A DNA stretch of 42,193 bases from a virus, in the IMG/VR virus record IMGVR_UViG_3300025536_000024, positions 1 through 42,193 of that record. The stretch is one strand, 5' to 3'. Both the position numbers and the translations under genes were made by a program. The first letter of the stretch is position 1, and every line of letters starts with the position of its first letter. Positions 19,411-20,771 of the stretch are shown here, piece by piece. The notes under the pieces are model-generated. The model did not search any database, had not been told where the DNA came from, and worked only from the letters and a program-made list of their open reading frames with translations.

Positions 19411-19483
19411 GGCCGGAGAGAGGATTTGCACCCCTGGCCTGCTCATTACAAGTGAGCTGCTCTGCTAGCTGAGCTACACCGGC
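19411..19483 (-). tRNA. tRNA-Thr(UGU), non-canonical D/T loops
   Basis: Acceptor GCCGGUG/CUCCGGC, loop CUUGUAA; D loop AGCUAGCA (no GG); T loop UGCAAAU. Confidence 0.65.
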
Positions 19484-19492
19484 ATGTTTAAT

Positions 19493-19567
19493 TGGAAGCC
19501 CATGCGGGGATTGCACCCGCGCTTAACTCTTTTGCAGGGAGCCGCGTTTCTACTTCGCCAATGGGCT
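19493..19567 (-). tRNA. tRNA-Cys(GCA), CCA encoded, non-canonical D/T loops
   Basis: Acceptor AGCCCAU/AUGGGCU then UCCA; loop CUGCAAA; D loop AAGUAGAAA; T arm GCGGG-UGCAAUC-CCCGC. Confidence 0.65.
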
Positions 19568-19629
19568 AAGGCGTGGTTGAAGAAACGCGGCTACAGGTCG
19601 GGTGGAGAAGAAGAATCATAGATGCGTGG

Positions 19630-19657
19630 ATTATATAACGGACGAGATGTATTGCAA
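19630..19657 (-). promoter_or_regulatory. Sigma70-like promoter inside the tRNA array (TTGCAA-16 nt-TATAAT)
   Basis: Minus strand: -35 at 19652-19657, -10 = revcomp of 19630-19635; sits in the 107-nt spacer upstream of tRNA-Cys. Confidence 0.55.
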
Positions 19658-19674
19658 CACAGACCTGTGGATAG

Positions 19675-19746
19675 TCATCCAGGGAGGGATTGAACCTCCG
19701 ACCTCACGATTAAAAGTCGCTTGCTCTACCACTGAGCTACTGGATG
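19675..19746 (-). tRNA. tRNA-Lys(UUU)
   Basis: Acceptor CAUCCAG/CUGGAUG, D arm GCUC-AGUGGUA-GAGC, loop CUUUUAA, T arm GGAGG-UUCAAUC-CCUCC. Confidence 0.9.
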
Positions 19747-19748
19747 GG

Positions 19749-19818
19749 TCAGGTATACGGGCTATGACTCCGTGCTGCTGGCTTCACAGGCCAGGGTGCT
19801 TCCCTACACCAATACCTG
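19749..19818 (-). tRNA. tRNA-His(GUG)-like, aberrant T arm
   Basis: Acceptor CAGGUAU/AUACCUG, arm CUGGC-CUGUGAA-GCCAG; T region ACGG(A)-GUCAUAG-(C)CCGU; A73 and no encoded G-1. Confidence 0.45.
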
Positions 19819-19820
19819 GG

Positions 19821-19891
19821 TGGCTTCAGGTGGTAACGCTCCACCGTCTTCGGGGTTTCAATCCGGCGCTCTTCTATTGAGCTATGAAGCC
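19821..19891 (-). tRNA. tRNA-Phe(GAA)-like, weak anticodon stem, non-canonical D/T loops
   Basis: Acceptor GGCUUCA/UGAAGCC, D arm GCUC-AAUAGAA-GAGC, loop UUGAAAC with only a 3-bp stem, T arm GGUGG-AGCGUUA-CCACC. Confidence 0.55.
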
Positions 19892-19892
19892 T

Positions 19893-19968
19893 TGGCTCGG
19901 ACGGGAGGACTCGAACCTCCGACTCTCTGGGTAACAACCAGGCACTCTACCATCTGAGTTACATCCGA
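19893..19968 (-). tRNA. tRNA-Asn(GUU), CCA encoded
   Basis: Acceptor UCGGAUG/CGUCCGA, loop UUGUUAC, T arm GGAGG-UUCGAGU-CCUCC, then GCCA. Confidence 0.85.
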
Positions 19969-19970
19969 AT

Positions 19971-20047
19971 GAGGTGGACCTTCGGGGTCTCTACGGGGCT
20001 TTCGCCTAGTCCGGCTGCTTACGCGCACCGAACCCCAGTATCCACCT
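19971..20047 (-). ncRNA. Unclassified tRNA-sized structured RNA occupying a tRNA slot
   Basis: 7-bp terminal helix AGGUGGA/UCCACCU followed by UA as in tRNA; interior (GGC-GAAA-GCC, GACC-CCGAA-GGUC) gives no cloverleaf. Confidence 0.4.
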
Positions 20048-20049
20048 TG

Positions 20050-20116
20050 CAGCTCTACTCGGAATCGAACCGAGCTGACAGGTTTTGGAGGCCCGTCTGT
20101 TCCCTGAACTAGAGCT
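20050..20116 (-). tRNA. tRNA-Trp(CCA)-like with truncated D arm (67 nt)
   Basis: Acceptor AGCUCUA/UAGAGCU, loop CUCCAAA (C31:A39), T arm CUCGG-UUCGAUU-CCGAG; D region only GUUC-AGG-GAAC. Confidence 0.5.
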
Positions 20117-20125
20117 AATTCGCAC

Positions 20126-20215
20126 TGGCTGGGAAGGTAGGCATCGAACCCACATAGAGCTTGCGCTCACTCCTGGTTCAGAGCCAGGCGACTTTACCAA
20201 TTTGTCCACTTCCCA
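20126..20215 (-). tRNA. tRNA-Gln(CUG) carrying an extra variable-region hairpin, CCA encoded
   Basis: UGGGAAG/CUUCCCA, G73, 3-bp D stem GAC/GUC, arm CCUGG-CUCUGAA-CCAGG; 18-nt variable arm with GAGC-GCAA-GCUC. Confidence 0.7.
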
Positions 20216-20235
20216 ATACGCACAATTTAGCACGG

Positions 20236-20307
20236 CGCTCCGTGGGAGAATCGAACTCCCGACACTCCCGCAGACAACGGGTAGCTCTGCCACTGAGCTA
20301 ACGGAGC
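20236..20307 (-). tRNA. tRNA-Asp(GUC)
   Basis: Acceptor GCUCCGU/ACGGAGC, loop UUGUCUG, T arm GGGAG-UUCGAUU-CUCCC. Confidence 0.8.
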
Positions 20308-20311
20308 ATGG

Positions 20312-20396
20312 CGGAAGGTGCTGGACTTGAACCAGCACACCCTTGCGGATGTCGCATTTCAAGTGCGAAGGGGTACCATTACCTTTATAACCTTCC
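20312..20396 (-). tRNA. tRNA-Ser(UGA), class II
   Basis: Acceptor GGAAGGU/ACCUUCC, arm UCGCA-CUUGAAA-UGCGA, variable arm CAUCC-GCAA-GGGUG, T arm GCUGG-UUCAAGU-CCAGC. Confidence 0.8.
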
Positions 20397-20397
20397 G

Positions 20398-20471
20398 TAC
20401 CGATGAGAGGACTCGAACCTCCAGATTACTGTTCCTAAGACAGTTGCCTATACCAATTCGGCTACATCGGC
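20398..20471 (-). tRNA. tRNA-Leu(UAG) lacking the long variable arm
   Basis: Acceptor GCCGAUG/CAUCGGU, A73, Leu-like D arm GCC-GAAUUGGUAUA-GGC, arm ACUGU-CUUAGGA-ACAGU; variable loop only AAUCU. Confidence 0.65.
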
Positions 20472-20474
20472 TTG

Positions 20475-20546
20475 TGGACCAATGGGGAATCGAACCCCAG
20501 ATGTCAGGATGCAAAACTGACGTGTTACCACTACCACTATTGGCCC
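20475..20546 (-). tRNA. tRNA-Ala(UGC)
   Basis: Acceptor GGGCCAA/UUGGUCC with G3:U70, loop UUUGCAU, T arm UGGGG-UUCGAUU-CCCCA. Confidence 0.85.
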
Positions 20547-20547
20547 G

Positions 20548-20620
20548 TGCGCGATGAGGGCTTTGCTCCCCCGACCTTACGGTTAAGAGCCGTCTGCTCT
20601 ACTAACTGAGCTAATCGCGC
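20548..20620 (-). tRNA. tRNA-Lys(CUU), non-canonical D/T loops
   Basis: Acceptor GCGCGAU/AUCGCGC, loop CUCUUAA; D loop AGUUAGUA (no GG); T arm GGGGG-AGCAAAG-CCCUC. Confidence 0.65.
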
Positions 20621-20621
20621 C

Positions 20622-20696
20622 TGGTAGTCCTTGTCGGTGCCGCCCCGACCGCCTGTTGAGTGTAAAACAACCGCTCTGCTGATGAGCTAAAGGACT
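20622..20696 (-). tRNA. tRNA-Val(UAC), CCA encoded, non-canonical D/T loops
   Basis: Acceptor AGUCCUU/AAGGACU, loop UUUACAC; D loop AUCAGCA; T arm GUCGG-GGCGGCA-CCGAC. Confidence 0.65.
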
Positions 20697-20697
20697 G

Positions 20698-20771
20698 TAT
20701 CCCCTGAGAGACTTAAACTCCCGACCTTCTGGTTCGTTGCCAGATGCTCTATTCGACTGAGCTAAGGGGAC
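20698..20771 (-). tRNA. tRNA-Arg(ACG), A33 and non-canonical D/T loops
   Basis: Acceptor GUCCCCU/AGGGGAU, arm UCUGG-CAACGAA-CCAGA; D loop AGUCGAAUA; T loop UUUAAGU. Confidence 0.65.

Follow-up and report, generated by a model that had tools for sequence, protein, structure and literature searches.

We analyzed a 42-kb phage contig (IMG/VR virus record IMGVR_UViG_3300025536_000024, positions 1 to 42,193; we call this whole stretch of 42,193 nucleotides the window). Its genes include those for a large terminase, a portal protein, GroEL, and a Ro60/TROVE protein with adjoining Y-RNA-like genes. It also contains an array of co-oriented tRNA genes on the minus strand (19335..21847), in which ARAGORN and Rfam identify 21 clean cloverleaves, a His-like gene, and a weak Trp-like gene (20050-20116, minus strand). 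Six of the cloverleaves have unusual bases at the elbow that is formed by the D and T loops. Students of tRNA learn that G18, G19, pseudouridine-55, and C56 hardly ever vary at this elbow, and programs that search for tRNAs depend on these bases. A previous reading of the sequence alone (the sequence-only reading) had listed the loops of these six genes, and ARAGORN prints identical strings for both loops. ARAGORN and Rfam call all six as tRNAs.

All six genes are on the minus strand, and we give their scores against the Rfam tRNA model (RF00005). tRNA-Thr(UGU) (19409..19483; 58.8 bits) has an A-G that is aligned to G18-G19 of the model, with A18 at 19466 and G19 at 19465, and positions 54-58 of its T loop read UGCAA (19430-19426). 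tRNA-Cys(GCA) (19493..19567; 51.1 bits) has A18 at 19551, G19 at 19550, and the same T-loop bases, UGCAA, at 19515-19511; it has discriminator U and encodes the CCA. tRNA-Phe(GAA) (19819..19891; 50.4 bits) has A18 at 19875, G19 at 19874, and AGCGU at 19840-19836. In tRNA-Lys(CUU) (20547..20620; 56.0 bits), the A-G is again aligned to columns 18-19, with A18 at 20603 and G19 at 20602, and the T loop reads AGCAA (20567-20563). tRNA-Val(UAC) (20622..20696; 41.2 bits) has A18 at 20680, G19 at 20679, GGCGG at 20644-20640, and an encoded ACCA. Finally, tRNA-Arg(ACG) (20697..20771; 52.3 bits) has G18 at 20754, A19 at 20753, and UUUAA at 20717-20713.

With default settings, ARAGORN called 19 tRNAs in the window, including four of the six (Thr, Cys, Lys-CUU, and Arg). 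It found the genes for tRNA-Phe and tRNA-Val only at a lowered threshold (-ps80), at which all 21 clean cloverleaves of the array were reported along with the His-like and the weak Trp-like genes. Rfam identified 19 tRNAs at its gathering score of 29 bits and three more in a permissive search, two of which were above the cut-off. All six variant genes match positions 1-71 of the model, at 41-59 bits, so each is above 29 bits. Both genes that ARAGORN misses by default have non-U54 T loops, and Rfam recovers them. In a standard annotation, this phage would lack tRNAs for phenylalanine and valine.

Apart from the elbow, the six genes mostly resemble canonical tRNAs: the acceptor, D, anticodon, and T stems are present (7, 4, 5, and 5 base pairs), the anticodon loop has 7 nucleotides, and a 7-nucleotide T loop sits on a 5-bp stem (as reported by ARAGORN). 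Five of the six also share G53-C61, U8, A14, A21, and the outer G19-C56 pair with canonical tRNAs. The sequence-only reading described the acceptor, D, and T stems as perfect. This is nearly right, but there is a U6-U67 mismatch in the acceptor stem of tRNA-Thr and a G1-U72 wobble in tRNA-Arg, and the D stem of tRNA-Cys has 3 base pairs as drawn by ARAGORN.

The changes at the elbow are coordinated. In five of the genes (Thr, Cys, Phe, Lys-CUU, and Val), Infernal aligns the A-G to model columns 18-19 and an N-G-C in the T loop to columns 54-56, and the A-G is always 2-3 bases before A21, which closes the D loop. With the A-G at 18-19, G19 and C56 are still present: the outer pair is retained, and the exchange is confined to positions 18 and 55, where the inner contact G18/U55 becomes A18/G55. 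tRNA-Arg(ACG) is the mirror case: G18/U55 is retained, and the outer pair is A19-U56 instead of G19-C56. None of the six has the full set of G18, G19, U55, and C56, and the changes compensate each other pairwise. A second contact, between positions 54 and 58, is also variable: Thr, Cys, and Arg have U/A there, Phe has A/U (not U/A), Val has G/G, and Lys-CUU has A/A. The sequence-only reading stated that all six genes lack G18-G19 and have lost the UUC of the T loop. Its loop strings were right, but its register was not: as corrected by Infernal, five genes keep G19 and tRNA-Arg keeps G18. As judged from this alignment, the elbow is rewired, not removed.

The co-variation of the two loops, which had also been claimed, is borne out. 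Among the 21 clean cloverleaves, 15 combine a D-loop GG with a T-loop UUC, five combine AG with NGC, and one (tRNA-Arg) combines GA with UUU. The genes with A18 and the genes with G55 are the same five genes, and the probability of this by chance is 1/20349 (p = 4.9e-5). All 15 of the other full-size genes keep both GG and UUC.

Could these genes be decaying pseudogenes, whose loop bases were lost under relaxed selection, so that the co-occurrence of the changes is incidental? The mismatch in the acceptor stem of tRNA-Thr and the rejection of tRNA-Phe and tRNA-Val by ARAGORN's default settings fit this idea, and the array also contains the clearly aberrant His-like and Trp-like genes. Also, tRNA-Arg(ACG) has A33 in its anticodon loop. 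U33 is near-universal in tRNAs and is present in the other five genes. However, the stems are intact, the Rfam scores are 41-59 bits, and positions 18 and 55 change jointly, in five of five genes here and across hundreds of unrelated genes (see below). The genes also retain, as read from the sequence, U73 in tRNA-Cys, A73 in tRNA-Phe, tRNA-Val, and tRNA-Lys, and A20 and C35 in tRNA-Arg, all of which are tRNA identity elements.

The relatives of this phage give further evidence against decay. Using the gene for a flanking vWA protein as the query, we found one sister contig (L002, which we also recovered as L345) and otherwise only distant relatives; a search with the Ro60 gene gave two distant loci. 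The vWA protein of the sister contig, which is the only close relative, is 67% identical, and its tRNA array is largely syntenic with the array in the window. Its tRNA-Phe is identical at 60 of 73 positions and keeps A18, G19, and AGCGU. Its tRNA-Val is identical at 61 of 76 positions and has the same D loop, with GGCAG in the T loop. Between the two contigs, both tRNAs differ at positions that are paired with each other in the stems (acceptor, anticodon, and T), while A14, A18, G19, A21, and the core of the T loop are kept. Compensatory changes in the stems together with conserved elbow bases imply purifying selection on the variant elbow of these two tRNAs. This is hard to reconcile with pseudogenes, and we consider that explanation very unlikely. 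The sequence-only reading had preferred a distinct structural class to random decay, and on this point our results agree.

The other four genes have the canonical GG and UUC in the sister contig, so the variant elbow is found in only two of its tRNAs. The clearest case is tRNA-Cys: the two contigs do not differ in the anticodon arm, the variable loop, or the T stem, but the elbow is AG/UGC in the window and GG/UUC in the sister. Similarly, tRNA-Arg(ACG) has A19/U56 and A33 in the window and G19/C56 and U33 in the sister. These differences indicate that lineages move between the two states, with both partners changing together. More distant relatives have single variant genes (a tRNA-Thr in L346 and a tRNA-Glu in L343). 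We did not find any cultured relatives, and the large terminase is at most 38% identical to that of any phage in GenBank.

To see how positions 18 and 55 are related in other tRNAs, we scanned in both directions. In the forward scan, tRNAs were selected only by the D arm (a GCUC/GAGC stem and A-G at 18-19) and their T loops were then read. This identified at least 119 stretches in viral contigs and at least 120 in prokaryotic genomes. Among the viral matches listed, 42 of 50 tRNAs have N-G-C at positions 54-56, two have G55 without C56 (UGA and UGU), and six have UUC; among the prokaryotic matches listed, N-G-C is present in 39 of 40 tRNAs. In the reverse scan, viral tRNAs were selected only by a T arm that reads UGCRA. 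This gave 74 distinct tRNAs, in 65 of which A-G is present and GG is absent. Seven of the 74 contain GG, but in most of these it lies at positions 15-16 and A18-G19 is still present. As controls, we considered tRNAs that were chosen via a neighboring protein-coding gene instead of by any feature of the tRNA (two samples, which overlap, as the sister contig is in both). Every GG tRNA in the controls has a pyrimidine at position 55 and none has G55: there are 98 with UUC and two with UCC, and in the second sample 48 with UUC and two with UCC. Taken together, the forward scan, the reverse scan, and the controls show that positions 18 and 55 are coupled both ways across many unrelated tRNAs.

In the reverse scan (loci L426-L520), 42 of the 74 viral tRNAs are tRNA-Met(CAU), and many of these have an initiator-like acceptor stem. 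Thus, initiator-type tRNAs that are encoded by phages often carry the A18/G55 elbow.

The variant elbow is also found in cells. Among the prokaryotic matches listed, the same gene for a variant tRNA-Phe(GAA) is present in eight genomes of Pelagibacteraceae. The scan also identified variant tRNA-Thr(GGU) and tRNA-Phe genes in bacteria of the candidate phyla radiation (CPR), tandem genes for tRNA-Gly(UCC) and tRNA-Pro(CGG) in Streptomyces, and a gene in Nostoc. Other matches are in metagenome-assembled contigs with 19-25 tRNAs per 8 kb, which resemble phage arrays. We looked more closely at a single-cell genome from SAR11 (Pelagibacterales), G001, from which 20 tRNAs were recovered (loci L321 and L335). 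The only tRNA-Phe that we found in it has A18 with UGCGA, its tRNA-Val(GAC) has A18 with AGCGU, and the other 18 tRNAs are canonical. These are the same two variant classes as in the window: A18-G19 with UGCGA, and A18-G19 with AGCGU. Unlike the genes of the phage, those of Pelagibacteraceae are not in a phage array: they are located on chromosomal contigs, and each isoacceptor has a single gene among the recovered tRNAs. We did not find a published description of the variant tRNA-Phe(GAA) or tRNA-Val(GAC) of Pelagibacteraceae. Because both subclasses from the window occur as ordinary cellular genes, the variant tRNAs probably take part in normal decoding. The subclass is thus not special to this phage, nor to phages in general, and, as judged from these genes, the A18/G55 elbow is not a product of decay.

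Two cellular cases deserve mention. In Streptomyces, the tandem tRNA-Gly(UCC) genes combine A18-G19 with a U-G-C T loop (L257:5456-5813; also in L205, L216, L225, L248, and L278), and these copies recall the cell-wall tRNA-Gly of Staphylococcus. The peptidoglycan of Streptomyces has a glycine bridge. In Nostoc PCC 7120, the trn operon of plasmid delta, which is the experimentally characterized Anabaena operon considered below, includes a Glu(CUC)-like gene with a D loop that lacks GG and a T loop of U-G-C-A-A (L342:2507-2584); the other genes of the operon are canonical.

The Streptomyces genes raise another explanation, which is that the variant tRNAs are kept off the ribosome and donate their amino acids elsewhere, as the nonproteogenic (NP) tRNA-Gly(UCC) of Staphylococcus does. 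The staphylococcal genes share the change from U to G at position 55 (they have UGC or UGU in place of UUC), have no pseudouridine there, and lack G18/G19 (PMC7826273, PMC4574755). But the staphylococcal tRNAs have U19 (PMC4574755) and hence no 19-56 G-C pair, all of them are for glycine, and they bind EF-Tu poorly, serve Fem transferases, and are diverted to cell-wall synthesis. In the phage, G19-C56 is kept in five genes, and the six genes are for six different amino acids (Thr, Cys, Phe, Lys, Val, and Arg). None of the open reading frames that we searched near the array encodes a Fem-type transferase or anything similar. Furthermore, the sole tRNA-Phe that was found in the SAR11 genome has the variant elbow; if it is the only one, it must serve translation. 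We consider a role as nontranslational carriers to be extremely unlikely.

Instead, we propose that all six genes encode working tRNAs and that alternative, mutually compensating bases hold the elbow together. In five of them (Thr, Cys, Phe, Lys-CUU, and Val), A18 would replace G18 as the intercalating purine of the D loop, and its partner would be G55 instead of U55 (pseudouridine); tRNA-Arg would keep the inner G18/U55 contact, with A19-U56 outside. We suggest that A18 is stacked in between bases 57 and 58, where it touches G55, much as an intercalating adenosine meets the G at position 2 of riboswitch-type T-loops. The L-shape and the flat 19-56 face would then be preserved, and if so, the tRNAs should still be processed, charged, and used by the ribosome. 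The modifications of the elbow should be different, as neither pseudouridine-55 nor 2'-O-methylguanosine-18 (Gm18) would be possible, and with A54 or G54 there would be no 5-methyluridine-54 (m5U54).

There is precedent for this pairing outside of tRNA. The T-loops of riboswitches have the consensus YGNRA (UGNRA in 89%), and a near-universal adenosine, inserted between T-loop positions 4 and 5, faces the base at position 2. The same study notes that tRNA departs from this consensus by having U at position 2 (bioRxiv 10.1101/2022.12.26.521914). The variant tRNAs share with the T-loops of riboswitches and rRNA, and their receptors, the G at position 2 and the adenosine from the partner loop, although here the motif sits in a tRNA, for which the combination of G18 and U at position 2 had been regarded as the rule. 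tRNA-Thr and tRNA-Cys (UGCAA) fit UGNRA exactly, so A18 with U-G-C-R-A is, by analogy, the general T-loop pairing placed in a tRNA. AGCAA in Lys, AGCGU in Phe, and GGCGG in Val depart from YGNRA at positions 1 and/or 5, and these loops lack the U/C-A closure there.

In a literature search, we did not find a published description of A18/G55 in tRNAs. R-scape/CaCoFold reports co-variation of the D loop with the T loop in the Rfam seed alignment, with the bases not named. Selected tRNAs with altered D and T loops were reportedly functional, in papers from the Steinberg laboratory on positions 54-58 and the T-loop.

Overall, we think it likely that the six genes encode working tRNAs. Four points weigh against this. 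First, A33 could make tRNA-Arg(ACG) a poor decoder or a pseudogene, and it is the weakest of the six; this base could be a decoding defect, or it could be a change in the anticodon loop like those that phage tRNAs use against anticodon nucleases. Second, the SAR11 genome is incomplete, so it may contain a second, canonical tRNA-Phe. Third, in Phe, Val, and Lys, which depart from the U-A reverse-Hoogsteen closure seen in classical T-loops, the riboswitch analogy does not explain the geometry of the loop. Fourth, the numbers of stretches from the viral and prokaryotic scans are lower bounds, so the frequencies in phages and in cells are not comparable.

The rewired elbow might be a neutral alternative state, or it might have an additional, adaptive role. 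Under the adaptive hypothesis, the variant was selected in phages because their tRNAs then do not depend on, or are not seen by, host factors that recognize the T and D loops. These could be the modification enzymes TruB, TrmA, and TrmH, or toxins and defense nucleases whose cleavage or binding site is T54-pseudouridine-55. The ribosome and RNase P need the outer 19-56 face, which would be kept, so this idea adds to the structural explanation rather than replacing it. G55, A18, and A54 or G54 do remove the target bases for pseudouridine-55, Gm18, and m5U54 (the enzymes are reviewed in PMC7912444), and a tRNase that acts on the T loop is known: the cleavage site of CdiA-CT from B. pseudomallei E479 lies between the conserved T and the pseudouridine (PMC9086364). 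Also, viral contigs commonly contain the variant (many tRNA-Met genes of phages have it), and several isoacceptors switched state between the two sister phages. On the other hand, the same design is found in housekeeping tRNAs of SAR11 and CPR bacteria, where evasion makes little sense; only six of the roughly 23 tRNAs in the array carry the variant, and only two in the sister phage; and among the open reading frames that we searched near the array, we found no tRNA-directed nuclease, modification enzyme, or counter-defense gene. The totals from the two scans give no measure of enrichment in phages over cells. The sequence-only reading had suggested a deliberate difference and pointed to nucleases and modification enzymes that contact the elbow, and our analysis gives no support for such an escape. 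We view adaptive insulation as improbable. A more specific form of the idea is that A18/G55, along with the R-G-C-G-K subclass of T loops (A/U or G/G at 54/58), is a second natural elbow design that escaped description, and that it is favored in phage arrays because, while the 19-56 face is kept, it is free from the host enzymes that modify the T and D loops and from toxins directed at the elbow or the T loop. We consider this to be speculative and, similarly, doubtful.

Whatever its origin, the co-variation of A18 and G55, with switching between sister phages, suggests that there are at least two workable solutions for the elbow. The variant could be a natural test bed for the roles of pseudouridine-55, Gm18, and m5U54. 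Censuses of tRNAs in phages and metagenomes probably undercount genes of this kind.

The array itself resembles the long tRNA arrays (PMC8421152, PMC4758250) that are known from bacteria, plasmids, and phages: it is dense and co-oriented, has more than 20 tRNA genes, and has an HNH-type gene inside. In the trn operon of Anabaena, 23 of the 26 array tRNAs are charged in vivo (PMC8421152). We considered whether this supports charging of the variant tRNAs, but that operon differs from ours in having only one G55 gene, the uncharged genes are not named, and the bases of the elbow are not discussed in that paper, so there is no usable link.

Two cultured phages were considered. A blastn search with the tRNA-Thr gene gave a match to the tRNA-Thr of T4-like phages, including Enterobacter phage PG7, which hinted at a shared variant, but the PG7 gene has GG and UUC, so the match reflects generic similarity among tRNA-Thr genes. 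The best DNA match was Erythrobacter phage XM05. Its elbows are canonical except for one tRNA-Lys(UUU) (L425:912-987), in which GG and U55-C56 are kept and only positions 54 and 58 are swapped (A54 and U58). The swap at 54/58 is thus possible without the swap at 18/55.

Several other features of the window are unusual. The His-like tRNA (19749-19818, minus strand; anticodon GUG; 42.9 bits) retains GGG in its D loop, and by manual reading it has an A53-C61 mismatch, G-U-C-A-U in the T loop, no G-1, and discriminator A. Two genes on the minus strand, at 20397-20471 and 20126-20215, are tRNA-Leu(UAG), which is drawn with a short variable loop of 5 nucleotides (75 nucleotides in total), and tRNA-Gln(CUG), which has a long extra arm (90 nucleotides). 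Both are nearly identical in the sister contig, so these are conserved oddities. The Ro60/TROVE protein (PF05731) is encoded at 16040-17446 on the minus strand, and directly upstream of its gene is a YrlA-like RNA (17686-17788, minus strand), whose score of 53 bits is below the gathering score for that family.

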